The notes beneath the pieces are model-generated. The model was not told where the DNA came from. It searched no databases and saw nothing but the letters and a program-made list of their open reading frames with translations. DNA of 43,424 nucleotides from an uncultured Actinomycetota bacterium (GTDB lineage Bacteria; Actinomycetota; Humimicrobiia; Humimicrobiales; Humimicrobiaceae): positions 1 to 43,424 of the forward strand of contig CAZODG010000002.1 of NCBI GenBank assembly GCA_964578525.1, written 5' to 3'. Made by a program: the position numbers and the translations under genes. This document shows positions 240 through 18,271 of the stretch, piece by piece (positions within the stretch are counted from its first letter, which is position 1; each line of letters opens with the position of its first letter).

Positions 240-472
240 AAAATTAATAAGACAGATGCAACCGGACTTGCAGAAATAACTGCCTTAAAAACTTTGGCTA
301 GTTTCTCTTGTTTTTAAATATCTTTAAGTCCTCAAATGTAATATAAAAAGCAAATATTTATCCTGTCGCCTAACATAAAAATTAGGTTATTACTGAACAT
401 AAAGTACCTAAAAACAGGCTAACAGGAAGAGTGCGTCATTAATCGTGAAGTGCTTTAGAAATTGTGTCGGTT

Positions 473-539
473 GCCGAGTTATAGACTAAAAATACTTAAA
501 AGATGTGTTTAAGATTGTAATAGAATAATAATTATTAAT
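473..539. repeat. Intergenic repeat element, copy A (lacks the left hairpin arm)
   Basis: gccgagttatagactaaaaatacttaaaagatgtgtttaagattgtaata matches 9764-9813 with 2 mismatches over 50 nt. Weaker similarity (ataattattaa) continues for about 15 more nt. Confidence 0.8.
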
Positions 540-1802: not shown

Positions 1803-1847
1803 ATTTTAAAACCTCTCCTTCCTGTAAAGCTCCAATTATAGATAATT

Positions 1848-3760: not shown

Positions 3761-3852
3761 TTGCAGTCTCCTTTCTTATTCTATAAAGTTTATTTTACTT
3801 TATAACAAATGATAAATACCTGCAATTTCTATTTTTGTTTTCCTCCTTTATT

Positions 3853-3880: not shown

Positions 3881-3970
3881 TTTCCGCATAGGGTAAATAA
3901 AAAAAACATAAAGAAAGAAACCAATCTTAAAATTAAAAAGAAAATAATTAACACAATAGGAGATATTAAA

Positions 3971-4195
3971 ATGGAAGTATCTGATGTGCTAAAAATGCAA
4001 ATACATAAAGATGTTAAAGGATTAATTAAGGCTTTAAAGGATAAAGATTGGCGTGTCCGAATTTGGATAGTAGGAGCTCTTGGGGAGACAAGAGATAAAA
4101 GGGCGATAGAATCTCTCACTCAGGCTTTAAAGGATGAAAATAGCATTGTCCGAAGTCTTGCAGAAGAGGCTCTTGAGAAGATAAAAGGAGGATAG
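3971..4195 (+). CDS. HEAT-repeat (PBS-lyase HEAT-like) protein, short
   Basis: Repeats of [28 protein letters not shown] aggag lies 8 nt before the ATG. Confidence 0.75.
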   Translation: MEVSDVLKMQIHKDVKGLIKALKDKDWRVRIWIVGALGETRDKRAIESLTQALKDENSIVRSLAEEALEKIKGG

Positions 4196-4252
4196 AATCA
4201 CTCGCTAAGGTTTAAAGGATGAAGATAGAGATGTCCGAAAGGAGGTGTGAAT

Positions 4253-4657
4253 ATGGGAATATCTGGCGGACCAAATATCGAGGAATTGAAAGTAAATAAA
4301 GATGTCGAAGGATTGATCAACGCTTTAAAGGATAAAGATCCAATGATCCGAGGGGATGCAACAGAGGTTCTTGGGAAGATAGGAGACAGCCGGGCGGTAG
4401 AACCTCTTATTGAGGCTTTAAAGGATATTGTCCGAGAAATTGCAATAGAGTCTCTTAGGAAGATAGGAGAGCCTGCTGTGGAGTCTCTAATTAAAGCTTT
4501 AAAGGATAAAGATACCCTTATCCGAAGTGGTGCTGCTAAGGCTCTTGGAAAGATAGGAGATAAAAGAGCTGTAGAATCTCTAACTGAGGCTTTAAAGTAT
4601 GGAGATATCTTTGTCCGAAGTGCGGCAGCAGAGGCTCTCGAGAAGATAAAAGGGTGA
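4253..4657 (+). CDS. HEAT-repeat (PBS-lyase HEAT-like) protein
   Basis: Four or more ALKDKD..(I/V)R..AA.ALGKIGD.RAVE.L repeats. The ATG at 4253 sits 7 nt after a perfect SD (aaGGAGG, 4241-4245). The ORF track starts two codons earlier at GTG 4247. Confidence 0.8.
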
Positions 4658-4719
4658 TAGAACCACTCGCTAAGGCTTTAAAGGATAAAGATAGCGATGT
4701 CCGAAGGGAGGTGTGTAAA

Positions 4720-4992
4720 ATGAAAAGTGGAGAGATAAAATGTTCTAAATGTGGGAAGATCATAGGTCAGTTACCCACTACAATTGCCGAAGATATCAGG
4801 CGCGGTGGAGGAATGGTGACCGGAGGGAATTCCCTTGATATACCGATGTATAAGTGCACCATCTGCCCCAGTTGTGGAAATGTATTCTGCGACAGTTGCC
4901 AAAGACCAAGCCCTGATCCATGCCCTAAATGTGGCAAAAGTAATTTAAGGCCAGGTTTTGCAGATTTAGTAATGCAATATTACAAGGGGTAA
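4720..4992 (+). CDS. Cys-rich zinc-ribbon protein (an alternative GTG start at 4654 adds one HEAT repeat)
   Basis: CSKCGK...CTICPSCGNVFCDSC...CPKCGK gives four CxxC pairs. The ATG at 4720 is preceded by GGGAGG at an 8-nt spacing. The in-frame extension from GTG 4654 encodes [19 protein letters not shown]. Confidence 0.6.
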   Translation: MKSGEIKCSKCGKIIGQLPTTIAEDIRRGGGMVTGGNSLDIPMYKCTICPSCGNVFCDSCQRPSPDPCPKCGKSNLRPGFADLVMQYYKG

Positions 4993-4999
4993 ATTAAAA

Positions 5000-5039
5000 A
5001 ATGATTTGTTGCTTAATTTAATATAAACAACAAATCATT
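5000..5039. terminator. Bidirectional intrinsic terminator between convergent genes
   Basis: Perfect 12-bp stem aatgatttgttg / caacaaatcatt with a 16-nt loop. It is flanked by an A-run on the left (a T-run for the minus-strand RRM gene) and T-rich sequence on the right. Confidence 0.6.
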
Positions 5040-5100
5040 ATTATGAAGAATTAAATCTACTACAAATCCTTTTAAAAAAGTCTTTGCATAGTTTTATTAT

Positions 5101-5358
5101 TTAATACCTTCTTTCGGTTCTTGGTCTTTGTGGAAGGGCTTCATCAACTTTTAAAGTACGACCTTCAAAGTCTGTGCCGTCTAAAGCTTCTTTGGCTTTT
5201 TCTGCTTCCGCATTATCTGACAGTTCAACAAAACCAAAACCTTTACTTCCAATTACATTAGCTGATTGAACCTTACCATGTGAGGAAAAAAGCTCTTCTA
5301 ATTGCTCATTAGTAACAGAATAGTTTAAATTCCCTACATATAGTTTGCTACCTTGCAT
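5101..5358 (-). CDS. RRM-type RNA-binding protein
   Basis: RNP-2 LYVGNL and RNP-1 KGFGFVE motifs. 85 aa with an R-rich tail. Strong SD aaaggagg upstream. Confidence 0.9.
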   Translation of the reverse strand: MQGSKLYVGNLNYSVTNEQLEELFSSHGKVQSANVIGSKGFGFVELSDNAEAEKAKEALDGTDFEGRTLKVDEALPQRPRTERRY

Positions 5359-5480
5359 ATTTACCTCCTTTCAAATGCTATCGTTTCTCTAAGCTTTACG
5401 ATATTTTATTTAGAGAGGTAACAGCGGGTAACAAATGGCTCTTAACTAAAATACTATCAAACAAAAGAGAGTTGCTAAAT

Positions 5481-5542
5481 AAAAAACCCCAAGTTATCTT
5501 TCACCATAACCTTACGACCTTAGGTTACTTAACACCTCGGGG
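5481..5542 (-). terminator. Long GC-clamped hairpin plus U6 (intrinsic terminator or 3' end of a small RNA)
   Basis: Minus strand reads CCCCGAGG...(inner hairpin TAACCT/AGGTTA)...CTTGGGG followed by TTTTTT. It lies about 260 nt downstream of the 5802..6203 gene and about 125 nt upstream of the RRM start codon. Confidence 0.5.
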
Positions 5543-5801
5543 CCTAATACTTTGGACTTCAATGACCTCATTTAGATTTTTTTCTCTTCCTGCATTCTTT
5601 CGTCTGCAAGCCTCAAATATTACCGAATACTGTCTCTATCCAAAGATTGGTCTAAATAATATCAGAAATTATAAGAATTGTCAAATAAATTATTTATAAA
5701 TGTTTTTATAATTATCTTTAAAATTTATTTTATTGTTTTATTAGGTTTATAACTTAAGCAAAAAGTATGCCTGGCATACGAATCTTCATCTTTGGTAAAA
5801 T

Positions 5802-6203
5802 TTATTTGCAATAGATTTTTTCTCCATTTCTGATTTCTTTTAATTCATTTATTTTTCCTATGTCTATAATATTACCAATAATTGTAACAGGACTGGCAGC
5901 CTGAGGTTTATCGCCCTGACTTGCAGGAGTTTTACCAAAAAAAATACATAATGCACTTCCGGGAGGCCAGAACGCTACTGTACCTATATCAACTTCTTCA
6001 ATACCATTTTCAATATCTGCCTTTAAAGGAATTGAAAAGTATATTTCGTCTCCCCATCTATTAACATTAGAGTCGATGGGCAGTATTTCAAGTAATTCTT
6101 TTGCCGTTTTTGTCTCATTTAATTGCACTTTGATATCAAGTTTGCCAATCAATAAATTTATAGTTTTTTTTATTTTATTATCATTTCCTGATTTTTTTTG
6201 CAT
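5802..6203 (-). CDS. Cyclophilin-like fold protein (TM1367-like family)
   Basis: RWGDEIYFSIP ... GTVAFWPPGSALCIFFGKTP...QAASPVTIIGNI closely follows the motif pattern of the TM1367-type cyclophilin-like family. Confidence 0.75.
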   Translation of the reverse strand: MQKKSGNDNKIKKTINLLIGKLDIKVQLNETKTAKELLEILPIDSNVNRWGDEIYFSIPLKADIENGIEEVDIGTVAFWPPGSALCIFFGKTPASQGDKPQAASPVTIIGNIIDIGKINELKEIRNGEKIYCK

Positions 6204-6322
6204 AATTACCTCTTTCTTCTAATAAAAATATTGTTATTTATATATAAAATGATAAGCCGCGTTATAAACTAAAAATGCCTAAAAAATGGTTTTAGATTAA
6301 AATGAATAAGCAAATGAGTTTG

Positions 6323-6730
6323 CTATTTTCTAAGTAGCGAAAAGTTCAGATCCGTTCCCGTGATTTCATTACCGTCGCCGTCGAGCATCAAGACTTCATC
6401 TTGAGAGACAACCTTGAGATATTGCTCGATGGAGCCATCGGATCTTAACAGCACTAATCTGCCTTCTTCGTCGATTTCCCAGCTGCCAGTCGAGATAAAA
6501 GGTTCTGAATCCGTACCCAGATAGGTAAATGAAAATGTATATGTCTTATCGGATTCTACAGATAGTTCCGCTTTAATCCCTTCACAGTCGGCGCATGGAA
6601 TCATACCTTCATAATTGCCAACAGCTTCATCTTTTTTGCAGCCTGATGCCAATATTCCAAGTAAAAATATAATCAGTAAAACAAAAGCAGTTAATTTTTT
6701 TATATTGCCGGACATAATGTTTCCTTTCAT
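6323..6730 (-). CDS. Lipoprotein with an NlpE N-terminal-like domain
   Basis: Lipobox LASGC. YEGMIPCADCEGIKAELSVESDKTY matches the NlpE-N CxxC motif (Y.G.LPCADC.GI...L.L). Confidence 0.65.
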   Translation of the reverse strand: MKGNIMSGNIKKLTAFVLLIIFLLGILASGCKKDEAVGNYEGMIPCADCEGIKAELSVESDKTYTFSFTYLGTDSEPFISTGSWEIDEEGRLVLLRSDGSIEQYLKVVSQDEVLMLDGDGNEITGTDLNFSLLRK

Positions 6731-6748
6731 TAAGCTACTTCCCCATAT

Positions 6749-7543
6749 TTATGATAATAGCGTGCTGTCTTCTGCAAATTCTTCACCGCTGACGTTGCCG
6801 AAACGCACCAGAAGATCCTCTACTGTAAGTTTTTGTTTTTCCTTCCCGCTTATCTCCAGAACAATCTGCCCTTCATACATCATTATCAGCCTGTCACCGT
6901 GCCTTATGGCATCGCGCATATTATGAGTCACCATCAGGGTGGTTAAATTATTTTCCTTAATGATCCTATCACTTAATCTTAGAACCTTTTGCGCGGTCTT
7001 GGGATCAAGCGCTGCCGCATGTTCATCCAAAAGCAAAAGCTTGGGTTTCTTTATTGTCGCCATCAGTAGCGTCAATGCCTGCCGCTGTCCACCCGAAAGC
7101 ATTCCTACTTTTATACTGAGACGGTTTTCAAGGCCCAGACCCAGCGTCCTGAGTAGTTCCCTGTACTCCTCACGCTCTTTATTGCTGATACCCCAGGAAA
7201 GGCCACGGCGCTTTCCACGCCGCAGGGCAAGGGCTAAATTCTCTTCGATACCCATATTTCCGGCCGTACCCATTATTGGATCCTGAAATACACGGCCCAG
7301 CACCTCGGCACGTTTATATTCGTTAAGATTCGTTACATCCTTACCATCAATTACTATCGAACCTTTATCCACAGGATATACACCCGCTACACAATTAAGC
7401 AGCGTAGATTTACCCGACCCGTTGCCGCCAATGAGTGTCACAAATTCACCTTTTTCAAGTTTAAGATTGACACTTTTCAGGGCTACCTTTTCATTTACAG
7501 TTCTGTGATTAAATATTTTGGTGACTTTTTTGACGTCAAGCAT
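6749..7543 (-). CDS. ABC transporter ATP-binding protein (PF04392-type uptake system)
   Basis: Walker A GGNGSGKST, signature LSGGQRQ, Walker B LLLLDEH. Directly abuts the permease gene. Confidence 0.9.
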   Translation of the reverse strand: MLDVKKVTKIFNHRTVNEKVALKSVNLKLEKGEFVTLIGGNGSGKSTLLNCVAGVYPVDKGSIVIDGKDVTNLNEYKRAEVLGRVFQDPIMGTAGNMGIEENLALALRRGKRRGLSWGISNKEREEYRELLRTLGLGLENRLSIKVGMLSGGQRQALTLLMATIKKPKLLLLDEHAAALDPKTAQKVLRLSDRIIKENNLTTLMVTHNMRDAIRHGDRLIMMYEGQIVLEISGKEKQKLTVEDLLVRFGNVSGEEFAEDSTLLS

Positions 7544-8437
7544 TTACTCTCCCCTTCTAAAAGACTTCTTTAATGGAACCAGATAAGAGCGGAATACCGG
7601 CAGGGAAAGAGCTACAGCTACGGTTATGGCTGTAAAAAGTTTTAAATCATTTGCGGGCATGCCCAGCCTGAGCACCACGGCAATGATGATACGGTAAGTG
7701 ATTGCACCAAGCGCCAGGGAGAGCAGCCGGACATAGAAGTTCTTTTTACCAAATAGAACTTCGCCTATAATAACAGATGCCAGGCCTATTACGATGGAAC
7801 CTATCCCCATCTGAATATCTGCAAAACTCTGGCTCTGCGCGATAAGCGCACCGCCGATAGCAACCAGGCCGTTACTGATCATGAGACCCAGTATAATCGT
7901 AGTGTTTGTATTGATACCCTGTGCACGGGCCATCTGAGGATTATCACCTGTTGCCCGTATTGCACAGCCTATTTCCGTTCCAAAAAACCAGTACAGGATA
8001 CCGGTAATGCTGCCGACAAAAATCAGCCCCAGTACAATTACAGAGCTCATGTGGTTCATTCCCATCTTTTCAAACACGGTATATGCGGTATCCACACGTA
8101 ATAGCGAAATGTTTGCCCTTCCCATTATCCGTAAATTGATTGAATACAGGGCAATCATTGTCAGGATTCCCGCAAGAAGCGAGGGAATTTTAAGTTTGGT
8201 GTGCAGCAGTCCGGTTATGAGACCAGCACTCAAGCCGCCAAGGAACGCCAGCAAAATTGCGAGATAAGCGTTAATGCCTTTGGTTATTGCAAATGCAGCA
8301 ATAGATGCACCCATAACGATACTGCCCTCGACTGTCAGGTCCGCAATAGTCAGGATGCGGTAAGTGATATAAACACCTATTGTTATAATCGCCCAGAGCA
8401 GACCAAGGGAAAGTGCTCCCATTAATATCTGCAGCAT
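7544..8437 (-). CDS. ABC transporter permease
   Basis: 297 aa, polytopic and hydrophobic. Contiguous with the ATPase gene (stop and start are adjacent). Confidence 0.85.
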   Translation of the reverse strand: MLQILMGALSLGLLWAIITIGVYITYRILTIADLTVEGSIVMGASIAAFAITKGINAYLAILLAFLGGLSAGLITGLLHTKLKIPSLLAGILTMIALYSINLRIMGRANISLLRVDTAYTVFEKMGMNHMSSVIVLGLIFVGSITGILYWFFGTEIGCAIRATGDNPQMARAQGINTNTTIILGLMISNGLVAIGGALIAQSQSFADIQMGIGSIVIGLASVIIGEVLFGKKNFYVRLLSLALGAITYRIIIAVVLRLGMPANDLKLFTAITVAVALSLPVFRSYLVPLKKSFRRGE

Positions 8438-8532
8438 ATCACTTGATCCATTCTTAAATTTTCGTCAGAGATCAATAGAAATAAAACTTCTATTAATCTC
8501 TGACGATATTATGTTAATCTTCGATAATTATA

Positions 8533-9513
8533 TTACTCTTCTTCGAGAATGTACTCGGTCAGATCAGCCGGAATCACAAGGCCAATCTCTTCGGCAACAA
8601 CACCATTGATTGCATAATCAAATTCGGTAGCCGATTCGATTGCCATTGTGGCAGGTTCTGCTTCGCCTTTTAAAATCTTAACAGCCATGAGGCCAGTCTG
8701 GTATCCAAGATCGTAATAATTAATTCCCAGTGTTGCCAGACCGCCAGCTATTACCATGCCGGACTCACCGCAGATTACCGGTGTTTTTGACTCTACTGTA
8801 ACTCCGTTTATCACGGGCATGGAAGATGCCAGTATATTATCGGTAGGAAGATAAAGCGCATCACAGTCTTGCACGATTGACTGAGCAGCCTGCTGCACAT
8901 CATTGGAATTAGTAATGGTAACTTCCGTATAGGTAAGGCCCATCTCCTCTATGACTGCTTTTGCGATTTCTGCCTGCACGATGGAATTATCCTCACTGGA
9001 AGTATAGATTACGCCTATAGTCTGGACATCCGGAACCAGTTTTACGAGTAATTCAATCTGTTCCCTGATTGGGTTCATGTCCGTGGTGCCACTGACATTA
9101 CCGCCGGGGGCTTCATTGGAATCCACAAGCTTAGCAGCTTCATAATCCGTAATAGCTGTTCCAAGTATGGGGATATCTTTTGTCTTGCCTGCAATGGACT
9201 GAGCCGCAGGTGTTGCGATAGCAAGTACCAGATCCACCTTGTTTGCAACAAAACGGTCACTGATGGTAGAAAGGTTGCTCTGGTCTGCCTGTGCATTCTG
9301 AAGATCAATTGTGATATTCTCGCCATCAACATAACCGTTGTCGGCAAGAGCATCGATAAATCCATCTCTGGCAGCATCCAGGGCGATATGTTCAACATAC
9401 TGGATAATACCTATCGTAGGATTTTTTGCTGCCTTGTCCTTACAACCTGATATTACCAGGGTAAAGGACATCACTAGCATGATAGCTAGTATGATAATTG
9501 CTGTTTTTTTCAA
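8533..9513 (-). CDS. ABC transporter substrate-binding lipoprotein (ABC_sub_bind / BMP-like family)
   Basis: Lipobox ISGC. IGIIQYVEH.ALD....GF...L...G fits the PF04392 family. TTG start with SD gaggagg 6 nt upstream. Confidence 0.85.
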   Translation of the reverse strand: MKKTAIIILAIMLVMSFTLVISGCKDKAAKNPTIGIIQYVEHIALDAARDGFIDALADNGYVDGENITIDLQNAQADQSNLSTISDRFVANKVDLVLAIATPAAQSIAGKTKDIPILGTAITDYEAAKLVDSNEAPGGNVSGTTDMNPIREQIELLVKLVPDVQTIGVIYTSSEDNSIVQAEIAKAVIEEMGLTYTEVTITNSNDVQQAAQSIVQDCDALYLPTDNILASSMPVINGVTVESKTPVICGESGMVIAGGLATLGINYYDLGYQTGLMAVKILKGEAEPATMAIESATEFDYAINGVVAEEIGLVIPADLTEYILEEE

Positions 9514-9560
9514 TTTAGCTCCTCCTCATTGTTTAATTCACAATTCTTAATAGTTATCTA

Positions 9561-9588
9561 ATTATAATGAAAAAAATTTTTATGTGAA
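9561..9588 (-). promoter_or_regulatory. Sigma70-type promoter of the ABC importer operon
   Basis: Minus strand reads TTCACA-N16-TATAAT, about 45 nt upstream of the TTG start. Confidence 0.55.
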
Positions 9589-9751
9589 TAGATATAAGAA
9601 TATTTGTATAAATGAGGTTTTTTGATGTTTTTGGTAGATTCTAAAAGATCAGGCTATTTCCGGGAAGTTTTTATTGCATTTATATCTGCCCTATTGATTA
9701 TTTTTTAATCTTCAAACAGAAGAAGATACTGCGGAATCAACAACTCATAGA

Positions 9752-9832
9752 TTTAGTCTATAAGCCGAGTTATAGACTAAAAATACTTAGAAGATGTGTT
9801 TAAGGTTGTAATAATAAAATAGATAATTATTA
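9752..9832. repeat. Intergenic repeat element, copy B, with a perfect 11-bp hairpin
   Basis: tttagtctata-agccgagt-tatagactaaa hairpin at 9752-9781. From the loop onward (9764-9813) it is near-identical to 473-522. Confidence 0.8.
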
Positions 9833-9922
9833 ACTTCAACATCAAGATTTCCGATAGATTTTATTTCTCTTACAATAATTCTTTTAATTGATCTTTCTTC
9901 TAATGAAATCACTTAAAGAGTT

Positions 9923-9950
9923 TTTATAAATTGCTCTTTAGTGCTAAAAT
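9923..9950 (+). promoter_or_regulatory. Sigma70-type promoter (TTTATA-N16-TGcTAAAAT), cassette copy 2
   Basis: Same architecture as 3853-3880 and 30/33 nt identity to it. It lies about 50 nt upstream of the TIR gene. Confidence 0.5.
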
Positions 9951-10000
9951 TTTTAAATATCCAAAAGAATCTTTAAATATTAGGGGTCAGACAGTATTTT

Positions 10001-11014
10001 ATGAAAAATGATACTTCCAAAATGTACACATATGACTTTGCAATTTCGTATGCAAGTGAGGAAGAAGAAATAGCCAGAAGAATTTCTCAGTCAATCAAAG
10101 AAAAAAATTGCGACTATGCAATCTTTTTTGCACCTAACGAGAGGGCTAAGCTGATTGGACAAGATGGAGAAAAGTTTTTTGAAAATTTATTTGCATATTC
10201 AAAACAAGTGATTGTTATATTATCTGAGAACTATAAGAGAAAAGAATGGCCAAGATATGAATGGGATATAATCAGAAAAAAAATTAAGGAGAATAGATTT
10301 TTTCCAATTAAAACTGATAATGTAGAAATCTTAGGTCTACCTTCAAGTTTTATTTACTATCGCTTCTCAAATAATTTTGAAGATATAGCTTCCTTATGTA
10401 TTGAAAAATTAATTTCCTTTGAACGCGAAATTGGAATTAAAAGAGAAACAGAGTTTCAAAAAATGGTAAAAGACTTACGCGAGTCAAGGGGCACAATTGA
10501 TAAATCTTTTCAATTAGTTGTTGATAAGAGACAGAGAACACCCCTTAAAGATATTAACTATCCAACAGATAATTATAATAAATCTTATAAAATCATTTCA
10601 GAAGAAAACCTGTCATTTTCAGTAATTTCCAGATTAAAAATAAAAATTGATTTACCTGATAACTTAAGTAAAGATGAGGTAGTTTTTAATATTAAACATT
10701 GTACTGCCTATATTTTTAATAACAAAAAACCTGATGCTTTAGCTATATTTATATATTCCTCAAAATCTAAAAATTTTCAAGATTTCGGAAAGTTTAATGT
10801 AGCAAGGGCTGAATTTGCACCTTTTGGTGATTGGGGAAAAGCTGAAGAAGGATTTGTATACAATTTACCTTCGGATAAATTTGAATGGAAGATAGAATTC
10901 GAGGAAAGCTATTTTGATAAAAGTAAAAAAATGAAAACAGCAGATGAATTAGCTAGAGATTTGATTCTTGAAATACTAAAAAACAAACATAAAGAGAATG
11001 ATACATCTAAATAA
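10001..11014 (+). CDS. TIR-domain protein with an uncharacterised C-terminal domain of about 200 aa
   Basis: N-terminus YDFAISYASEE..IA..I...L (TIR beta-A) and VIVILSENYKRKEWPRYEWDII (S.NY..S.W...E motif). The predicted catalytic Glu is E87, codon 10259-10261. Residues from about 140 to 337 match nothing I recognise. Confidence 0.8.
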   Translation: MKNDTSKMYTYDFAISYASEEEEIARRISQSIKEKNCDYAIFFAPNERAKLIGQDGEKFFENLFAYSKQVIVILSENYKRKEWPRYEWDIIRKKIKENRFFPIKTDNVEILGLPSSFIYYRFSNNFEDIASLCIEKLISFEREIGIKRETEFQKMVKDLRESRGTIDKSFQLVVDKRQRTPLKDINYPTDNYNKSYKIISEENLSFSVISRLKIKIDLPDNLSKDEVVFNIKHCTAYIFNNKKPDALAIFIYSSKSKNFQDFGKFNVARAEFAPFGDWGKAEEGFVYNLPSDKFEWKIEFEESYFDKSKKMKTADELARDLILEILKNKHKENDTSK

Positions 11015-11052
11015 AAGACTTTTTACCTTAATTATTCATTTTCATTATTATT

Positions 11053-11138
11053 AGGAGAGGGAGGGATTCGAACCCCCGGAGGACAAAGCCCTCAACAGTT
11101 TTTAAGACCGCCGCATTCGACCACTCTGCCACCTCTCC
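11053..11138 (-). tRNA. Type-II (long variable arm) tRNA, anticodon UAA, so tRNA-Leu(UAA)
   Basis: Minus strand reads GGAGAGG-TG-GCAG..TGC-G-GCGGT-CUUAAAA-ACUGU-(variable arm GAGGGC-UUU-GUCCUC)-GGGGG-TTCGAAT-CCCTC-CCTCTCC. The cloverleaf folds by hand. There is no encoded CCA. The discriminator is U. Confidence 0.85.
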
Positions 11139-11238
11139 AACACTCCATAGGAGTGTTTGCATTAAGTTATCACAATCTTAAATAAACATAAATATTTTAA
11201 TTTTTAATATTTATAATTTTTCAGAATACTACCTAAAA

Positions 11239-12456
11239 TTATTCGATAAAGGTTATATATTTTAATGTGTTTGGATTAAATTTAGTATTATCTTTTAGAT
11301 ATTTATTAATCGATTTTCTTAATATTTCCTCAAGGCTATTTAAGTCTTCAAAATTTGGGATTAAAATTTTTTCACCGTGTAATATATCACTTCTTAAGTT
11401 ATAACTTTTTAAAACTAAATCAAAGATTTTTTTTCTTTCTGAATTATTGTCTTTGAGCAAAAATGCAGTTCTAATAGCAAGTTTATATTGTAGCTCTTGA
11501 TTTATATCTTTCAGGAATAAAGCTTCTAATCCTATAATAAAATCTATTAGTTTATTAATTAAATTCTGATTGTTAATACCACTATCAAACCTCTGAACTG
11601 CGATATTAAAATTATTCTCTTTAATTATTTTTAAATTTTTATAAATATTTTGAAACTTCTTTAAATCTGCAGAAGAGAATTCAAAAACTTCATCAAATAA
11701 CAGATTTCGTTCTGTAGTTGAAATGCTATGAAAGTCTTTATAAAAGCTTACTACGAAAGAATATATATTGTTACCTAAAAAAACTCCCGATCTCCTCATA
11801 ATTCTTAAACTTTTTATTACATTTTTAAATGTTTCTCTTGATATATTATTCTCATCATATAGTTCTTTGTTTCTTTCTAAGTTAACACTTTTTATAGCAT
11901 TATCGTTTTCAACAATTATTTTTTTTAACCTATATTTCCTTTCTAGAACTGTGGAAAAATATATTTCATATAGAGGAAAAGGATATAAAACATCCATATT
12001 ATAGTCATCTATAATATGGATATCTTTTAAAAAATCAGGATCATTCCTAATATAAAAACTATCATCTATATGAATACATTCTTGCTCTAATTTGAAATTA
12101 AATAATCTAGCCTTATCAATCATTTCAAAGTATTCTGAATAAAATAAATCTTCAAATAGGATATAAAAATTTTTGAAATTTGCTTTATTAAGTTTTTTAT
12201 TAATTATTTCATTAATAAAATCAAATATTATATCTGTATAATCAAAAACCTGTTTTTCCATAGGGTAAATTATTTTATTAATGAAAGTTGATATTTTTTG
12301 ATCTTTTTTTAATTCTTCTAAAAATTCTTTATATTCATTCAATTGTATTATTGTTGAATTAAAAAATTTAAAATCTGAAACTTCAGACTTAAATATAGAC
12401 TTAGTTTTTTGATATAATTTGTAAGCTTTTTCAAATAATCTATTGTTTCTTACCAT
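11239..12456 (-). CDS. Protein with a C-terminal HEPN-like domain (Rx4H) and an unknown N-terminal region of about 290 aa
   Basis: The C-terminal region of about 110 aa reads IDFIIGLEALF...ELQYKLAIRTAFLL...IFDLVLKSYNLRSDILHGE. R355-x4-H360 (11377-11394) fits the HEPN RNase motif as seen in Apea-like and MAE_28990-like HEPN families. No Walker motif. Confidence 0.6.
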   Translation of the reverse strand: MVRNNRLFEKAYKLYQKTKSIFKSEVSDFKFFNSTIIQLNEYKEFLEELKKDQKISTFINKIIYPMEKQVFDYTDIIFDFINEIINKKLNKANFKNFYILFEDLFYSEYFEMIDKARLFNFKLEQECIHIDDSFYIRNDPDFLKDIHIIDDYNMDVLYPFPLYEIYFSTVLERKYRLKKIIVENDNAIKSVNLERNKELYDENNISRETFKNVIKSLRIMRRSGVFLGNNIYSFVVSFYKDFHSISTTERNLLFDEVFEFSSADLKKFQNIYKNLKIIKENNFNIAVQRFDSGINNQNLINKLIDFIIGLEALFLKDINQELQYKLAIRTAFLLKDNNSERKKIFDLVLKSYNLRSDILHGEKILIPNFEDLNSLEEILRKSINKYLKDNTKFNPNTLKYITFIE

Positions 12457-12477
12457 CTTAAATTCTCAGAATAAGTT

Positions 12478-13572
12478 TTAATACATTGTTATTACTCTTA
12501 ATATTTTTTGCTCTGGTATATATTCTAGTGAAACTAAAAACTTTATTATCTCCCCTGTATCACCAGCTATGACTTCAATTTGTATATTAAATTTTGTTGT
12601 ACTATGTTCCACATCATATTCCATATTATAGATATAATTATCCTTAATCTTGCTTCTAATTAATCCTTGAAGTTCTTTAATATTTATGTCCAACATGCAA
12701 CCTTTTTTAAATTTGCCACTTTTTTCCCCAAGTAAATATTTTAATTTACCTTCTTCTATTAGTATTTCAAAATCATCAATATTAAAAATAGTTCTTGAAA
12801 TGGTATTTAGGGAAAACAATGTATCTTCTTCAAAACCCTTATATACTTTACGTTCAATCTTATAAGATAGAAATAGATCAAAATACATCCCAGGCAAACT
12901 AATACAAGTATAGCCATTTTCTTCGAATGGGTAACCACGCATGTTAAAGTTTTTAGATTCTTCAACATCATCTTCGTGTCCCATTATTATATTACTTTTA
13001 TTTTTTATAAAATCATTGATTACTGTCATTGACGCATAAGTTTTCATATAGCTAGAGTTTGTCACATCAATAAAACCGACATATGGTTTAAAACTCTTAA
13101 GACCTTCATTCATCTTATTAAACATATTAATTGTCATGTTATTTATATATACAAAAAATAGTAAACTACTATGTATGTAAGTAAAATCTTTAACTAATAT
13201 TATTGATTCAGCAAACTTTTCATATAAAAAATCTTGACTCTTATTATGATTAATAAAATCTCCAGCCAGTACACTATGAGAACTTCGCTTATCAAGTAAG
13301 GGTATTATCTTTTCAAATACTGGGTATCCATAAAAAGATGAGTCTATTTCTTTGCTATTAAAAACAAAAATAATTTCTAAACGATCCAAACTTGGAGTTA
13401 AACAGCTTTTTAAATTCTGATATTCTATTCCTTTTATTCGCAAAATCTCAACTGTTTTTTGAAATGCATTATTTATTTCAAAATACATCTGTTCATGGTT
13501 AAGATTAAAATAACTAGCTATAACCTCAAGCATTACATTATCTCTTCCATTTATTGTAAATATAGTACTCAT
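12478..13572 (-). CDS. Hypothetical protein, no recognisable domain (upstream partner of the HEPN gene)
   Basis: 364-aa ORF ending 21 nt before the HEPN gene start on the same strand. No P-loop, TM or nuclease motif identified. Confidence 0.65.
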   Translation of the reverse strand: MSTIFTINGRDNVMLEVIASYFNLNHEQMYFEINNAFQKTVEILRIKGIEYQNLKSCLTPSLDRLEIIFVFNSKEIDSSFYGYPVFEKIIPLLDKRSSHSVLAGDFINHNKSQDFLYEKFAESIILVKDFTYIHSSLLFFVYINNMTINMFNKMNEGLKSFKPYVGFIDVTNSSYMKTYASMTVINDFIKNKSNIIMGHEDDVEESKNFNMRGYPFEENGYTCISLPGMYFDLFLSYKIERKVYKGFEEDTLFSLNTISRTIFNIDDFEILIEEGKLKYLLGEKSGKFKKGCMLDINIKELQGLIRSKIKDNYIYNMEYDVEHSTTKFNIQIEVIAGDTGEIIKFLVSLEYIPEQKILRVITMY

Positions 13573-13657
13573 TTTCTTTAAAAATATTAATAAAGCCCTT
13601 GATTCTACTACATTATACTACTACCCTCCCCATAATTAATAATTCAAAACTATTTTT

Positions 13658-14533
13658 ATGAACCAATACATTGATTATTTCTTAAATTACTTACAAACAG
13701 AAAAAGACGCTGCAAAATCCACAATTCATAAATACAGAGCTGATTTAGAAAGATTATTTGAATATTTACAAGTAACTGATATTAATGAAATTAATCAAAA
13801 TCATTTAAGAGATTATTTAAATCATATCAGACAAACTTATAGCTACACTTCAAGTTCAATTGCAAATAAGATTAATATATTACATCACTTTTTCAGGTTT
13901 CTTGATAATTCCGGTTACATAAAAATCAACCCTGCTATTTTAATTAGACCACCAAGAAAAAAAGTTAAAATTCCAAAAGTATTTAATGATATTGAACTTG
14001 AAAAATTCTTAAGTGCAACTGAACACAATACCTATACCAAATATAAAAAATATGCTTTACGAGATAAATTAATCTTTACAATGTTTGCTTATACTGGACT
14101 GAGGCGAACTGAACTTATTAACCTAAACTGGAATGATATTAATTTAGGAAATAGGTATTTAATTGTAAGAAAATCTAAAAATAAAAATCAAAGAATAATA
14201 CCGCTTCATGATAAGATTCTTGAGTTATTGGATAAATATTTATCTGAAAGACTGCCTTTAAAAAATAATGCCTTATTTATCGGCAGAACAGTACAGTGTA
14301 TTCATCATAACAGTTTAAAAAATCTATTTGACCGGTATATTAAAATTGCAGGGCTTTCTGGTAAAGGCTTTACAATTCATACTTTAAGACATACTTTTGC
14401 AACAAGATTACTCAATAAAGATGTAAGCCTTGTTAATATTAAGAATTTGATTGGTCATAGAAGTTTAGAATCGACACAGATTTACTTACATGTAACTGGA
14501 AAAGAGTTGGAAGAATCAATAAAGATGCTCTAA
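13658..14533 (+). CDS. Tyrosine site-specific recombinase (XerC/XerD-like integrase)
   Basis: N-terminal SAM-like core-binding domain (YLQTEKDAAKSTIHKYRADL). Catalytic residues in GLRRTEL, HTLRHTFAT and GHRSLESTQIYLHV (R-H-R-Y). Confidence 0.9.
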   Translation: MNQYIDYFLNYLQTEKDAAKSTIHKYRADLERLFEYLQVTDINEINQNHLRDYLNHIRQTYSYTSSSIANKINILHHFFRFLDNSGYIKINPAILIRPPRKKVKIPKVFNDIELEKFLSATEHNTYTKYKKYALRDKLIFTMFAYTGLRRTELINLNWNDINLGNRYLIVRKSKNKNQRIIPLHDKILELLDKYLSERLPLKNNALFIGRTVQCIHHNSLKNLFDRYIKIAGLSGKGFTIHTLRHTFATRLLNKDVSLVNIKNLIGHRSLESTQIYLHVTGKELEESIKML

Positions 14534-14538
14534 TTATT

Positions 14539-15135
14539 TTATTTTTTGGTATTTGTCTTGGTTTCTCCCTTAAAGGTCATTACCCCATCTACTTTTATGG
14601 TGAATATATTTTTAAATTCTTTTTCAATCATATTTAAATAATCATCGATCTCTCTTTTTATACTAATCTCATTGAAAAGAAAGTTTAAATTATCTTTTAT
14701 GTCTATTAGTAATCCTGGATTGAACTTCTTTAAATTATCAATTAAGATTCTAATGCTATTTTTGTAATATAGGTATGTACTAAAATAAACATCAATCTCA
14801 TTTATTGAAATTTTATTTAATTTTAATAATCTTCCTAGTTTTGATAAAAATAATATCAATCTATAGCTTCTTTTATTTATATCTTCGTTGTATTTGTCAC
14901 CCTTAAATTCTTCCTTTGCAAAATCTTCAAAAAATTTTAAATGATCATTTACAAACTCATCTCTTAGAATAAAACCTAAGTTATTTTGATCCTCAATTTC
15001 TTTATTTTTCCTATCTAATGCCCTATCAGTTAAATAATCTCTAAATTTATAAAAAGCAATTACCGCTGTTGCTGTAACAATAGCAGCCATAAAAATTGTA
15101 CCAAATCCTGTTAAAATATTCGGCCAGTTCAACAT
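14539..15135 (-). CDS. Membrane-anchored hypothetical protein (last gene of the R-M-vsr operon)
   Basis: Single N-terminal TM helix (ILTGFGTIFMAAIVTATAVIAFY) followed by about 165 aa of charged helical-looking sequence. It starts 14 nt after the vsr stop. Confidence 0.6.
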   Translation of the reverse strand: MLNWPNILTGFGTIFMAAIVTATAVIAFYKFRDYLTDRALDRKNKEIEDQNNLGFILRDEFVNDHLKFFEDFAKEEFKGDKYNEDINKRSYRLILFLSKLGRLLKLNKISINEIDVYFSTYLYYKNSIRILIDNLKKFNPGLLIDIKDNLNFLFNEISIKREIDDYLNMIEKEFKNIFTIKVDGVMTFKGETKTNTKK

Positions 15136-15149
15136 TTACTGCCCTCTTT

Positions 15150-15638
15150 TTAGTTTCTTTTAGTATATAAATCTATAACTCTACTCAGAGTTTCAATAAA
15201 GTTTTTATTAATTTCACATTCCCATATTACTAGAACAGCCCAACCTATGTTTTCAAGTCTTTTTATTTTTAATCTATCTCGTTCTTTGTTTCTTTTAAAT
15301 TTTTTTACCCAGAATTCTCTGTTTTCTTTTGGTAGTCTCAGATTACATTTTGGACACCTATGCCAAAAACAACCATTGATAAATATGGCTATCTTTAATC
15401 TAGGAAAACAGATATCAGGTCTACCAGGGACTTCCTTCCAACTTGTTCTATAGCCTCTAATACCTTCGGCGAATAAGGCTCGACGTAAACTAAGCTCAGG
15501 TTTTGTATTCTTAGAGACATTGCCTTTCATCGACTTTGAGACATTTTTTGAAGAAGCTTTTGGTGAAGGGCCTAAGAAAACTGACATCTTCTCTCGAAAA
15601 ATAAGATTGCCTTTTGCCCTTATATCAGACATATGCAA
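15150..15638 (-). CDS. vsr: Very-short-patch repair endonuclease
   Basis: SKNTKPELSLRRAL...G.RGYR and GRPDICFPRLKIAIFINGCFWHRC are hallmark Vsr motifs. Confidence 0.9.
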   Translation of the reverse strand: MHMSDIRAKGNLIFREKMSVFLGPSPKASSKNVSKSMKGNVSKNTKPELSLRRALFAEGIRGYRTSWKEVPGRPDICFPRLKIAIFINGCFWHRCPKCNLRLPKENREFWVKKFKRNKERDRLKIKRLENIGWAVLVIWECEINKNFIETLSRVIDLYTKRN

Positions 15639-15639
15639 A

Positions 15640-16902
15640 TTATACTCTCTGTATTACTTTTGAATCAGAATATTTATAATTTACCCCATTCTCTAATAAT
15701 TCTGATAATTTTTGTCCAATTCTTTCTATTAATCCTACTACTAATGCATTCCCCATACAGAAATAACGCCATTTTAAAGGCATGCCTGTATCAGTCCAGC
15801 TATCTGGAAAACCATTTAGCCTTTCAGCTTCTAATGGGGTTATTATTCTTAACCGACCATTCTCGGGATCTCTAAGAACATGAGTAAACCTATTGGGTTT
15901 TTTATTCCCTTCATTTGTAATAAGAGTACGTGATGGTCTGTCTAATCTATCTGGAAAAGTTATTGCACCTTCTTTATAATTATAACTATAGCCGCTTTTT
16001 GAAGTCCTGATTTCATTTTTTGCACCTTTGTGATATTTCCAAGAATCAATTTCTTCCTCAGGTAGGTAATAGTATTCATCAACTTCATTTTCTAATATCT
16101 CACCTAAACAATGTTGGTTTTCTAATATTGGATTTACTGTTTTAGTATATATGTTCCCTCTCAACATTAGCCCTGCATTATGAAAATCATATTTAAACTC
16201 TTCCGTGATTTTTACTAAATCACCAGTTAAGGTTACATTTTCATCTAAGCTATTCAAAGTCAAACTTTTATATTTCGTTTCTTGCACTGGAAATGCCCTT
16301 CCAAAAAAACCATTCTTTTCAATTATGTCATACTTATCTATACCATTTTCATAAAGGTTTTTTAGAGGACTCTCAAATAATGATGCTAGAATAAAAACCC
16401 TAAACCTTCTTTGTGGAAAGCCATAGTCTGAAGAGTTGATTACTCTCCATTCTACATTATAGTCTAGATTGTTTAAGCAACTTAAAATAACACCAAAATC
16501 TCTACCCCTTTTATTAGAAGGTGAGCGCAAAAGACGATCTACATTCTCAAGCAATACTAATGGTGGACGTAAGCTCTCAAGTATATGATATATCTCCCAC
16601 CAAAGAACTCCCTTTTTACCTTTTATTCCTTTAGCATTAGTCGCGGCAACTGAGTAATCTTGGCAAGGGAACCCACCTACTAAAAGATCGTGTGGGGGAA
16701 TATTATATTTTTCTTTAGCTATATCAATATTTGTGTGACCTTCTTTACCAAAGTGCGATATATAACACTCAGAAGCATATTGGTCTTTCCTTTTAGGTTC
16801 CCATTGATTCGAATATATTGTTCTCCAACCACTTTTTCCTAATCCTAACCTAAAACCACCGACACCTGCAAAAAGCTCACAGATTGTTTTTAAACTCTTC
16901 AA
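15640..16902 (-). CDS. dcm: DNA (cytosine-5)-methyltransferase
   Basis: Motif I ELFAGVGGF, motif IV GGFPCQDYS (catalytic C80), motif VI ENV, motif VIII QRRFRVFI, motif X GNALVVGL. Confidence 0.95.
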   Translation of the reverse strand: MKSLKTICELFAGVGGFRLGLGKSGWRTIYSNQWEPKRKDQYASECYISHFGKEGHTNIDIAKEKYNIPPHDLLVGGFPCQDYSVAATNAKGIKGKKGVLWWEIYHILESLRPPLVLLENVDRLLRSPSNKRGRDFGVILSCLNNLDYNVEWRVINSSDYGFPQRRFRVFILASLFESPLKNLYENGIDKYDIIEKNGFFGRAFPVQETKYKSLTLNSLDENVTLTGDLVKITEEFKYDFHNAGLMLRGNIYTKTVNPILENQHCLGEILENEVDEYYYLPEEEIDSWKYHKGAKNEIRTSKSGYSYNYKEGAITFPDRLDRPSRTLITNEGNKKPNRFTHVLRDPENGRLRIITPLEAERLNGFPDSWTDTGMPLKWRYFCMGNALVVGLIERIGQKLSELLENGVNYKYSDSKVIQRV

Positions 16903-17783
16903 AATAACTCTCCAGATGAAAAATAATCTTTAAAGTACTCTTTTAAATCCTTATTGCTTATAGGTGATACTCCCTGCCTTGATAAATTAGAGCAAACTTT
17001 TGAAAACGTTATAAAACCTAATAAAAACCCAATGATACTAATATGTGTCAATGCATTATTGACTCTACCTACTTTTCCGTTCCAACTTTTCTTTTTTTTA
17101 ATAATATCGCGGTAATAGTATTTACAATCTTCATTCCACATTAAAAGCTCATTATAATATAGAAAACCTTCAAGGCTTAATCCTCCCCATATCGTATGAC
17201 ATTTATTTTCTAAGTAATTCAATATTCTCTCATCTGGATTATATTTATAGAAAGACTTTTGATTTACCGAACCCTTATTAATTATTTCTTTCTCTATATC
17301 CTTATCAATATACAAATCCACATATTTAGTATTAAAGTTATCTAATTTTAAATAATCTATCATAAAAGCCATTCTATATAATAATATAACAATTATTTCG
17401 AATACTTCTATTTTATTGGAATCTATAATCTTTTTAAAATTTTCATTCATAATATCCCATATATCCCTAAAACTCATATCACTTAACCATGATAAACTCT
17501 TTTCAACATAAGCTCTTGGTCTAAAATCCCAAGGTCTTTCCGCGTCACCTTTTCTTGAAGATTCTTTTCCAGGGTATTGGATAAAAAATTTTTCGCTGGA
17601 ACTGGTTTCGTGAATCAATAATTGTCTCTCTCTATTTCCATACTCAAGATGACTTCTATCTAAATTTTCTATCCATTCGATATTAGCTACTCTACGCTTG
17701 TATGAGTCACCCTTTTTACTACAATTTTGCAACGGTGAAACTAATAGACTCTTTATGTAATCCTCGTTTATGTTATCTTTCAT
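16899..17783 (-). CDS. Putative type II restriction endonuclease (assigned by context only)
   Basis: 294-aa orphan ORF whose stop overlaps the methyltransferase start by 4 nt. I could not locate a clear PD-(D/E)xK, HNH or GIY-YIG motif. Confidence 0.45.
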   Translation of the reverse strand: MKDNINEDYIKSLLVSPLQNCSKKGDSYKRRVANIEWIENLDRSHLEYGNRERQLLIHETSSSEKFFIQYPGKESSRKGDAERPWDFRPRAYVEKSLSWLSDMSFRDIWDIMNENFKKIIDSNKIEVFEIIVILLYRMAFMIDYLKLDNFNTKYVDLYIDKDIEKEIINKGSVNQKSFYKYNPDERILNYLENKCHTIWGGLSLEGFLYYNELLMWNEDCKYYYRDIIKKKKSWNGKVGRVNNALTHISIIGFLLGFITFSKVCSNLSRQGVSPISNKDLKEYFKDYFSSGELF

Positions 17784-17849
17784 AAATATTTTTTTCTTAA
17801 AACTTATCTTTTATAAAGAAAAAGTATCAATTGGCCCCATCAAATTAAT

Positions 17850-18056
17850 TTATTTAAATATTTTAAAACAACTATTTAAATCCATCTTTAATCTTTCTAA
17901 GTCCTTACTATAAAATATTACTTCTTGCCTGACAAGGCCTGAAGGAAGTTTTGTTCTCTTGCTAGCAATTAGAATCACTTCTTTATCAAGTCCAAGAGCT
18001 AACCCAAGTTCAAAGCCCGTGTTGAAAGTAGAATTGGTAAGATTAACTAAAAAATT
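17850..18056 (-). pseudogene. C-terminal fragment of a TIR-like / nucleoside 2-deoxyribosyltransferase-fold protein
   Basis: Start-less frame reading NLTNSTFNTGFELGLALGLDKEVILIASKRTKLPSGLVRQEVIFY...*. The N(V/T)xFELG...LGK..V.L....(E/K)LPS(D/G)L pattern is typical of TIR-like (COG4271/Cap12-type) and NDT-fold proteins. An in-frame TAG lies upstream, and a separate short ATG ORF (from 18195) is in another frame. Confidence 0.3.
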
Positions 18057-18271
18057 CTATTACCTGTTAACCATATTGTATATTAAAATTAATCTTGTTG
18101 AAATAACAGATAAGGCTAAAAGCAAAAGCGTAAAATCCGTACTTCCAATGCCCCACTCCTTCTTGACAACTATACCCAAAGTGATTAAAATTCATGTTTA
18201 GCTTTAAATTAGCTGTATTACTATAAACAATTAAAAATCATAAAAAACTTTAATCGAATTTAGCAAAGGAG

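Follow-up and report, generated by a model that had tools for sequence, protein, structure and literature searches.

A probable polar mosaic of accessory genes around a Xer-family recombinase gene in an uncultured low-GC Actinomycetota lineage

The window analysed here is a stretch of 43,424 nucleotides (nt) of contig CAZODG010000002.1 (assembly GCA_964578525.1), from an uncultured bacterium of the Humimicrobiaceae in the phylum Actinomycetota. It contains an AT-rich interval (about 9600-18260) in which the gene for a tyrosine recombinase of 291 amino acids (aa) separates two sets of genes, with a TIR protein, a tRNA-Leu and proteins of 405 and 364 aa encoded on one side and an operon with a Dcm-type methylase and a Vsr endonuclease on the other. 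An earlier note, made by reading this DNA alone, had described the interval as one accessory island, about 8.5 kb long and flanked by two housekeeping transporter loci. Comparison with related loci leads us to propose that it is probably the recombinase-proximal part of a polar, mosaic array of cargo genes in an uncultured low-GC Actinomycetota lineage, 'Ca. Humimicrobiaceae', and not a single inserted island. An AT-rich defence island would by itself be routine; the unusual part is the organisation around the recombinase.

The AT-rich interval and its recombinase gene

The interval is compositionally foreign, with a composition signal far beyond chance. In 1-kb windows the G+C content is 0.21-0.33 over 9501-18000, against 0.44-0.47 over 6501-9500 and 0.38-0.45 from 18001 onward, and by segment it is 0.275 (9551-18260), 0.439 (6300-9550) and 0.409 (18261-43424). 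AT-richness is found outside the interval too, positions 1-4000 and 5001-6500 having a G+C content of 0.29-0.37. The sharp drop in base composition reported in the earlier note is thus borne out, its hand counts (13 G+C in 12001-12060, 27 in 8701-8760) are exact, and the intergenic borders that it put at about 490 bp measure 487 nt (9514-10000) and 488 nt (17784-18271). Codon usage, which it had proposed as a check, sets the island genes apart cleanly: G+C at third codon positions (GC3) is 0.16-0.25 in island genes vs 0.35-0.48 in 24 neighbouring core-type genes, and the TTA share of leucine codons is 40-68% vs 4-31%. The tetranucleotide CTAG occurs once in the core part of the window (18261-43424) against 18.9 expected (observed/expected 0.05) and 12 times in the island (9551-18260) against 17.2 expected. 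This contrast is an independent mark of foreign origin, and the scarcity of CTAG in the core possibly reflects a host process directed at that sequence. GATC is mildly depleted in the island (observed/expected 0.56) and barely in the core (0.85). As for gene content, the mobile or defence character claimed for nearly every gene holds for the TIR protein, the tRNA, the recombinase, Vsr and the methylase, and finds no confirmation for a restriction enzyme and a decayed TIR fragment. PADLOC, also proposed there, recognises only the methylase and Vsr, and the TIR protein weakly, by its TIR domain alone.

The recombinase gene (13658..14533, + strand) encodes a Xer-family protein with matches to PF00589 (4.7e-37) and PF02899 (1.6e-15). 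It has the features that define the tyrosine recombinase superfamily, namely a catalytic R-K-H-R-H/W-Y set and a core-binding SAM-like domain, and as read from the sequence the catalytic set is apparently complete (R149, a KSKNK hairpin, H241-x-x-R244, H267 and Y276). The protein scores below all Xer equivalog cut-offs (XerD 199.3 vs 329.6, XerC 197 vs 335, XerA 191.8 vs 220, XerS 89 vs 267) and fails the integron integrase models (TIGR02249, 74.4 bits vs a cut-off of 265; NF011946, 39.7 vs 435), and for that reason the locus is filed neither as an integron nor as a Xer/dif system. Its best matches in the PDB are XerD (1.4e-29) and XerA (1.3e-24), IntI4 reaching just 6.6e-7 over 61 residues. 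Orthologues form more than 45 clusters at 81-92% aa identity from many metagenome samples, labelled Candidatus Humimicrobiaceae; the importer binding protein described below places the window among uncultured Actinomycetota metagenome-assembled genomes. The gene has island-type composition (G+C 0.27, GC3 0.20), and a search of IMG/VR for a viral origin found neither the recombinase nor the array repeat described below.

Fixed junctions, stranded copies and a one-sided repeat

The comparison comprises seven loci: the window, and six more to which homologues of the recombinase and the 405-aa protein led in exact-protein look-ups. Across them the recombinase gene and about 65 nt upstream of it are kept at 82-86% nt identity, with different DNA on either side. 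Past the recombinase stop codon the window has the 198-aa open reading frame (ORF), Vsr, Dcm and the 294-aa ORF; L082 has DUF498 and a DpnII-type restriction-modification system, L085 and L099 a 1201-aa helicase, L095/L096 (the same place in two records) Abi_2, L097 a radical SAM gene and DUF4365, and L098 HEPN_AbiV. In every related locus, then, other genes replace the Dcm-Vsr operon downstream of the recombinase. L085, L095/L096, L097, L098 and L099 also have, 0.7-7 kb beyond the recombinase, an element with an integrase (327-328 aa) and a D5_N/DUF5906 primase; it reads towards the recombinase, is 70-80% identical in nt between loci, and is absent from the window and L082.

On the 5' side there is a slot, running from a fixed point (..CTTGATTCTACTAC..) 65 nt before the recombinase ATG to about 25 nt before the ATG of the 405-aa gene, in which genes are exchanged by exact swaps. 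The 364-aa gene occupies it in the window, L085 and L099; other genes replace it in L082 (a 423-aa gene and Abi_alpha) and L098 (a five-gene methyltransferase/GGDEF cluster). L082 lacks the TIR gene and tRNA-Leu at the place that they occupy in the window. L085 and L099 share window positions 9903-14523 (TIR, tRNA, 405, 364 and recombinase) at 84-89% nt identity and nothing beyond, 14540-17783 included; the interval therefore comprises at least three modules with separate histories. The shared block of about 4.6 kb is intact, at this identity, in three genomes (window, L085/L100 and L099). Presence/absence polymorphism, which the earlier note had named as a further check, is therefore seen among related loci, where Dcm-Vsr, the 364-aa gene, TIR and the tRNA all differ, and its single island gives way to at least three independently varying modules around a conserved recombinase gene. 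A metagenome scan with the alignment of the 405-aa protein gave no locus beyond those already known.

The conserved stretch ahead of the recombinase ATG, which we call upstream segment P (13592..13657), was delimited by alignment of seven intact and four stranded copies. Every copy, intact or stranded, starts at the identical nucleotide (..CTTGATTCTACTACATTATACTACTAC..), and cargo is joined straight to that point; the fixed junction CTTGAT is found in 11 copies. On the cargo strand P holds a TATAAT box between GTAGTAG direct repeats, a putative promoter, and the segment exists as two alleles, one with a deletion of about 24 nt and no TATAAT box. A consensus scan for promoters and terminators was uninformative in this AT-rich DNA (51 sites vs 54.9 expected).

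The stranded copies are truncated duplicates of the start of the recombinase gene. The one in the window (9693..9752, + strand) is decayed and corresponds to coding nt 13-76 and is 78% identical over 64 nt to 13670-13733 (blastn E 5e-7); tblastn aligns it to Xer residues 8-26 (E 0.001), and a weaker trace of the upstream region begins at about 9637. Such arrangements recur independently in two other loci. L097 has two copies, at 7057-7184 (nhmmer 9e-27) and 4047-4153 (4e-20), each made of the upstream segment and about 62 nt of coding sequence and each standing before a repeat. In L099 a longer one (5006-5321, nhmmer 4e-76; about 250 nt of coding sequence) lies distal to the same TIR-tRNA-405-364 cassette. 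Of the L097 copies, the one at 4047-4153 has an upstream segment of the allele found intact in L095 and not of the allele of L097 itself, which points to exchange between genomes. At the other end of the gene, L097 has a 130-nt copy of the recombinase 3' end after the inserted radical-SAM gene.

A lineage-specific repeat of about 80 nt with the core GCCGAGTTATAGACTAAAAATACTTAAAAGATGTGTTTAAGGTTGTAATAA, here called the array repeat ('rep') and first noticed in BLAST output, was modelled with nhmmer, and 1.41 Mb of retrieved DNA was searched with the model. The window contains it at 9741..9825 (+ strand, E 1.3e-18), as a partial copy between NlpE and a cyclophilin-like gene at 6252..6295 (+ strand, E 1.4e-6), and outermost at 450..537 (+ strand, E 3.9e-20). 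There are 15 copies in distinct loci, with 18 more matches in duplicate records. All 15 have the orientation of the recombinase gene and are confined to its 5' side, of which about 65 kb were searched; about 78 kb of DNA on its 3' side contained no copy, nor did the remaining 1.2 Mb, which is made up of other loci and includes 80 importer loci. The repeat closes each group of cargo genes, and the cargo is nearly all transcribed away from the recombinase. The copy at 9741-9825, which is the distal end of the TIR-tRNA-405-364 cassette, and the stranded recombinase copy together (9693-9825) make up what had been reported as the left border of the island. The repeat is also present beyond the TIR gene in L085 and L099, and the partial copy at 6252-6295 is homologous to the repeat ahead of the cyclophilin-like gene in L082. 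The repeat contains an inverted core of 6 bp around a spacer of 7 nt (CTTAAA-N7-TTTAAG), which is loosely dif-like, and its outer arms mismatch each other. An attC-like hairpin was considered and rejected: RNAalifold with 11 copies gave -4.29 kcal/mol over 13 pairs with no compensatory changes, conservation being of sequence.

Cargo genes and flanks

The first cassette (9741-13591) consists of the 364-aa gene, the 405-aa gene, tRNA-Leu(UAA), the TIR gene and the repeat. The TIR protein (337 aa; 10001..11014, + strand) has an N-terminal TIR domain (PF13676, TIR_2, 2.7e-11) with a likely catalytic Glu87 in WPRYE, as read from the sequence, and a C-terminal half of about 200 aa with no family match. 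PADLOC model PDC-S66 matches the TIR part alone (5.6e-10), there are weak PDB matches to bacterial TIR NADases, and the protein is 86% identical in aa in L085 and L099. The tRNA-Leu with anticodon UAA (11053..11138, - strand; ARAGORN; Rfam 55.3 bits) was the single match of an Rfam scan; it lies downstream of the 364- and 405-aa genes on the same strand, and 83 of its 86 positions are identical in L085 and L099. Both of these genes had been called in the earlier note, and the Pfam match for the one and the ARAGORN and Rfam matches for the other uphold its calls. A conserved hairpin, ACACTCC-YAT-GGAGTGT (11139-11160), stands upstream of the tRNA in the window, L085 and L099. The tRNA was also considered as an attachment site, and rejected: its 21-nt 3' end matches itself alone in the window at up to 3 mismatches, and a repeat search finds no such family. 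With no copy of its 3' end elsewhere in the window, the tRNA is not a detectable integration site.

The 405-aa protein (11239..12456, - strand) has a C-terminal HEPN-type motif, GLEAL at 309-313 and R355-x4-H360-G361. E311 and the R355, H360 and G361 of the R355-SDIL-H360-G361 motif are all invariant in 39 relatives, at a mean column identity of 30%, and an exhaustive search found 2835 relatives at E<=1e-3. HEPN_RiboL-PSP is weakly matched by 3 of the 39 (best E 2.3e-4), single relatives weakly match Csx1/Csm6 and Cas13-ApeA models, and the protein itself matches PHROG 28161 at 3.7e-9. It has no Pfam match at threshold and no match to a curated HEPN profile, its N-terminal 260 aa match nothing, and its structure model is unusable (predicted local distance difference test score, pLDDT, 37). 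It is likely a HEPN protein. The HEPN call of the earlier note is thus backed by the invariant E...Rx4HG motif and the weak profile matches of relatives, and lacks a Pfam match at threshold; the pairing of HEPN and orphan gene that it also described is not conserved, the 405-aa gene occurring without the 364-aa gene in L082 and the 364-aa family being solitary elsewhere. A near-perfect palindrome with an 18-bp stem (11987-12026) lies inside the 405-aa gene, and the terminator scan flags it on both strands.

The gene for the 364-aa protein (12478..13572, - strand) shares its strand with the 405-aa gene, from which 21 nt separate it, and the tRNA follows 100 nt further downstream. The protein is one of a widespread family encoded by solitary genes; its more than 400 homologues, 43-57% identical, come from Vibrio, Shewanella, Halomonas, Tenacibaculum, Armatimonadota, Planctomycetota and other taxa. 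In Vibrio and two metagenomic contigs that were examined the gene is solitary and has no recurring neighbour, and the suggestion that the Vibrio copies are integron cassettes was dropped, no attC-like repeats flanking the gene in L088. The AlphaFold2 model is confident (pLDDT 88.5, predicted template-modelling score 0.89), and no PDB fold is significantly similar to it (best E 0.02; query template-modelling score, TMq, <=0.21); in BFVD the only similarity was local, over 110 columns, to two 'minor capsid proteins' (E 3e-3). The protein has no match in PDB, Pfam, NCBIfam, PADLOC or PHROG, no library consistently recognises any of 40 members of its family, and it is absent from the phage records searched. 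Conserved polar clusters, G-H199-E200-D-D202 and S-Y-K238-I-E240-R, suggest an enzyme. On the Pseudomonas aeruginosa megaplasmid pBJ86 (L101, 8001-16016) a 32% homologue adjoins, among IS66 elements, a DUF3375/DUF4194/ATP-binding/DUF3322 cluster, whose composition we take to be Wadjet-like, and on a Burkholderia plasmid a homologue adjoins DUF5677. The protein would be a self-contained accessory gene product, probably immunity-related, by association only. Its family is the most clearly undescribed item of the interval: with solitary genes, a confident model, no known fold, no annotation and more than 400 members, it is a concrete and cheap target for phage-challenge screening in hosts that can be cultured.

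On the 3' side of the recombinase lies an operon of four genes read on the - strand. The C5 cytosine DNA methyltransferase of Type II (15640..16902) matches PF00145 (2.2e-62), PADLOC MTase_II (2.3e-150) and M.HhaI (4e-35) and is 53-55% identical to plasmid dcm genes; of these, H7 has a Sau3AI-family restriction gene as its neighbour, and H6 another restriction endonuclease gene, unnamed. The very-short-patch repair endonuclease Vsr (15150..15638; TIGR00632, 125.7 bits vs a cut-off of 97.85; PF03852, 3.8e-21; PADLOC Vsr, 7.1e-23) is encoded 1 nt from the methylase gene on the same strand, as in an operon. A vsr gene beside a C5 methylase gene is the standard arrangement that limits C-to-T mutation at methylated sites. 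The 294-aa ORF (16899..17783) extends 4 nt into the start of the methylase gene. Position alone makes it a candidate restriction endonuclease gene, and it gave no significant match in Pfam, NCBIfam, PADLOC, PHROGs, PDB or plasmids; one Logan contig of 1.9 kb (L081) bears a 100% identical copy. At the end of the operon is the gene for a 198-aa protein with a hydrophobic N-terminus (14539..15135) that has no match in Pfam, NCBIfam, PADLOC or PHROGs and was not found in any related locus. The restriction-modification-Vsr operon of the earlier note keeps its methylase and Vsr, the 294-aa ORF having no detectable similarity to any restriction enzyme. The right border (17784..18271) is non-coding, with short broken reading frames in six-frame translation and promoter-like boxes facing the 294-aa gene (17935-17907, - strand) and the NEW3 operon (18163-18191, + strand), and has no similarity to any fetched locus. 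The decayed TIR-like fragment reported there is not confirmed: the border gives a non-significant Nuc_deoxyrib_tr match (E 0.09) and no similarity to the island TIR protein.

Left of the interval are NlpE and an ATP-binding cassette (ABC) importer (ATPase, permease and PF04392 binding protein by Pfam; 6323..9513, - strand). This block has host-like composition, yet the partial repeat at 6252 and the border repeat enclose it, with the stranded fragment at 9693 at its upstream end, and because the importer sits within the repeat-punctuated array the accessory region extends at least to window position 450. The repeat positions thus remove the importer from the housekeeping flank to which it had been assigned. 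The direct adjacency of importer and NEW3 operons elsewhere, which the earlier note had proposed to check, was not shown: in 80 related genome loci NEW3 never lies upstream of the importer, and exact-protein look-ups gave no match for NEW3 or its ATPase. The closest relative, L001, is 88.6% identical in nt over the importer, and its contig reaches no farther than window position 9612, at the left border of the interval and shortly before the repeated sequence begins. The right flank consists of NEW3/ABC/ABC-2 genes followed by the core genes RluD-like, LspA and IleRS, and neither GC skew nor gene orientation switches within the 43-kb window.

Counted outward from the recombinase, the cargo units of the window are the first cassette, the NlpE-importer block and a cyclophilin-like cassette. 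The cyclophilin-like gene (5802..6203, - strand) is common to L082, where it occupies a different array position, between two repeats and directly after the 405-aa gene. This cassette is 94% identical in nt to L082 11255-11762, the anchors of the window and L082 being just 83-85% identical. The partial repeat and the cyclophilin-like gene form a second variable spot (window 4995-5783 and 5788-6318) between NlpE and a conserved RRM-protein block, at which L001 has 2.7 kb of unrelated, partly AT-rich DNA (3303-5989). The AT-rich positions 1-4992 of the window hold lipocalin-like, WG-repeat, dodecin and HEAT-repeat/zinc-ribbon genes between array repeats, a non-defence array cargo. Farther away, a low-GC gene pair at 33521-34302 (a YtxH-like protein of 133 aa and a 127-aa ORF) resembles two array cargo genes of L095 (4334-4812; 66-79% nt). 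Defence-type cargo in the sister arrays includes Abi_alpha, Abi_2, HEPN_AbiV, SLFN_AlbA_2, DUF4365, NERD, DUF5677 and a DpnII-type restriction-modification system.

Cargo capture, rival explanations and known systems

In the polar array that we propose, the repeated upstream/5' segment of the recombinase gene would be the place where recombination brings in new cargo. If a circle bearing that segment were inserted in Campbell fashion, the older copy would be left stranded distally, and the array would grow at its recombinase-proximal end. That the recombinase itself catalyses the insertion is a tentative suggestion, the other route being homologous recombination. Its involvement is favoured by the fixed junction, the strict polarity and the conservation of a catalytically complete recombinase in fluid DNA; a precise site-specific event is disfavoured because the truncated copies differ in length and no inverted-repeat core site is evident. 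The cargo genes would act independently of one another. The TIR protein may be an NAD+-consuming or signal-producing immune effector, and the 405-aa protein may be a HEPN RNase of the abortive-infection type. Dcm and the 294-aa ORF could form a Type II restriction-modification pair, with Vsr repairing the T:G mismatches that arise from deamination of 5-methylcytosine, and the tRNA-Leu could supply decoding of UUA, which is heavily used by the AT-rich cargo.

Several observations weigh against this proposal. The seven loci represent about six genomes and are metagenome assemblies throughout. No recombination site was recognised, the upstream segment having direct, not inverted, repeats, and the array repeat folds weakly (-4.3 kcal/mol) with no covariation. 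The coding length of the stranded copies varies (about 62, 84 and 250 nt), a spread that erosion or homologous recombination would explain as well as a precise site-specific event. Much of the array cargo is non-defence (ABC importer, cyclophilin-like, RRM, dodecin and Cupin genes), and the 294-aa ORF bears no nuclease signature. Finally, the recombinase is conserved so strongly (81-92% aa) that it could be a housekeeping Xer merely sitting in a hotspot.

In its full form this last alternative holds that the protein is the chromosome-dimer resolvase, a single Xer like XerS or XerA with dif beside its gene (XerS does lie beside its dif site), and that the array is a pile-up like that of integrative mobile elements exploiting Xer (IMEX) combined with flux in the terminus region. 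Such a role would account for the closest structural relatives being XerD (1.4e-29) and XerA (1.3e-24), for scores of 192-199 bits with the XerD, XerC and XerA models, for 45 or more orthologue clusters at so high an identity across many samples, and for the loosely dif-like core CTTAAA-N7-TTTAAG in the repeat. It accords poorly with a gene of island-type rather than core-type composition whose product misses all Xer equivalog cut-offs, with the lack of a terminus-like switch where genes on both sides lie mostly on the same strand, and with duplicated segments that include recombinase coding sequence and not merely a site of about 30 nt; nor was a canonical dif-like site recognised. We regard the housekeeping resolvase as improbable. 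A comparably small chance attaches to the idea that the 364-aa protein, the HEPN protein, tRNA-Leu and TIR make up one multi-gene defence system, in which for example TIR senses or signals, the HEPN RNase executes and the tRNA serves as a spare or decoy. HEPN nucleases that cut tRNA anticodon loops exist, the 4.6-kb block is intact at 84-89% nt identity in three genomes, and the spacing of its genes (21 nt between the 364- and 405-aa genes on one strand, 100 nt to the tRNA) is suggestive of a unit. Yet L082 has the 405-aa gene and no TIR gene, tRNA or 364-aa gene, in L098 the 405-aa gene comes after another set of genes, members of the 364-aa family in Vibrio and the two metagenomic contigs are solitary, and PADLOC has no system of such composition. 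Least credible of all, and already contradicted, is a single island of about 8.5 kb that arrived in one event with its own integrase, into or beside tRNA-Leu between housekeeping transporter loci. In its favour are a tRNA and a tyrosine recombinase within a markedly AT-rich block whose intergenic borders, of about 490 nt each, are clean. Against it, the window has no direct repeat of the tRNA 3' end; the recombinase, of a short Xer type, lacks an arm-binding domain and is conserved where the flanking content differs; the halves vary independently, L085 and L099 sharing 9903-14523 and not 14540-17783; and what was taken for the left border is a boundary between cassettes inside a longer array.

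An integron-like reading of the array is possible. Sedentary chromosomal integrons, which consist of IntI, attI, Pc and cassettes bounded by attC, have recently been shown to stockpile anti-phage genes; to our knowledge, integrons are essentially unreported in the phylum Actinomycetota. As in integrons, the recombinase gene lies at one end of the array and cargo is inserted at a fixed point just upstream; the array is polar, with cargo nearly all read away from the recombinase and a conserved repeat after each cargo group; the same cassette is found at different positions in different genomes; and defence and miscellaneous cargo are mixed. Unlike integrons, the locus has a recombinase of 291 aa that is not of the IntI type (TIGR02249, 74 bits vs 265) and a repeat that is conserved in sequence with no attC-type hairpin; its cassettes may hold several genes, a tRNA or an oppositely oriented gene; copies of the recombinase's own 5' end are stranded between them; and the 3' end of the recombinase gene is a variable junction too. 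Tandem genomic islands at the ends of tRNA, tmRNA or protein genes, where every insertion rebuilds its target and strands part of a copy, offer another parallel, in that partial target copies (recombinase upstream region and 5' end) are left distal to each inserted unit and the 130-nt copy of the recombinase 3' end follows the inserted radical-SAM gene in L097. In contrast to such islands, the target here is the recombinase gene itself and not a tRNA, tRNA-Leu shows no att duplication, and the units are small (1-7 kb) with no integrase of their own. Like defence islands and hotspots (the core defence hotspots of Pseudomonas, P2/P4), the interval has clustered immunity genes, AT-richness and rapid turnover at a fixed anchor, but turnover affects both sides of an anchor that is itself within the variable region, there are internal repeats and a consistent polarity, and no phage or satellite backbone is present in the window.

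The cargo genes likewise resemble known systems in part. Adjacent Dcm and Vsr genes in one operon recall the Dcm-Vsr Type II m5C systems with methylases like those of Sau3AI and LlaKR2I, from which the module differs in that its putative 294-aa restriction gene resembles no known endonuclease and an extra 198-aa gene is attached. The TIR domain has the conserved Glu at W-x-x-x-E found in Thoeris and bacterial TIR immune proteins; unlike Thoeris, the island has no protein with a SIR2 or Macro domain (ThsA-type), and PADLOC gives no Thoeris match. The 405-aa protein shares with the HEPN abortive-infection RNases (ApeA, AbiV, RiboL-PSP) an Rx4H motif and an upstream conserved Glu. Compared with known TIR and HEPN proteins, no curated family threshold is reached beyond TIR_2.

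Taken to its furthest, the proposal of a cargo array becomes one of an undescribed gene-capture platform. In such a platform the Xer-family recombinase would insert cassettes made of upstream segment, cargo and 80-nt repeat at its own 5' end, giving polar arrays that would serve as a common library of defence and adaptive genes, functionally parallel to integrons with an unrelated site type and a non-IntI enzyme; the 364-aa protein would then represent a novel immunity family of single genes whose fold the PDB lacks. We hold this extended proposal to be doubtful as a whole. A literature search, incomplete in its coverage, found no description of a Xer-anchored cassette array or of the mobile elements of this lineage. 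If the recombinase does drive the array, the locus would represent a second, independent invention of integron-like gene capture, and its cassettes would be a catalogue of candidate immunity genes from an uncultured lineage.

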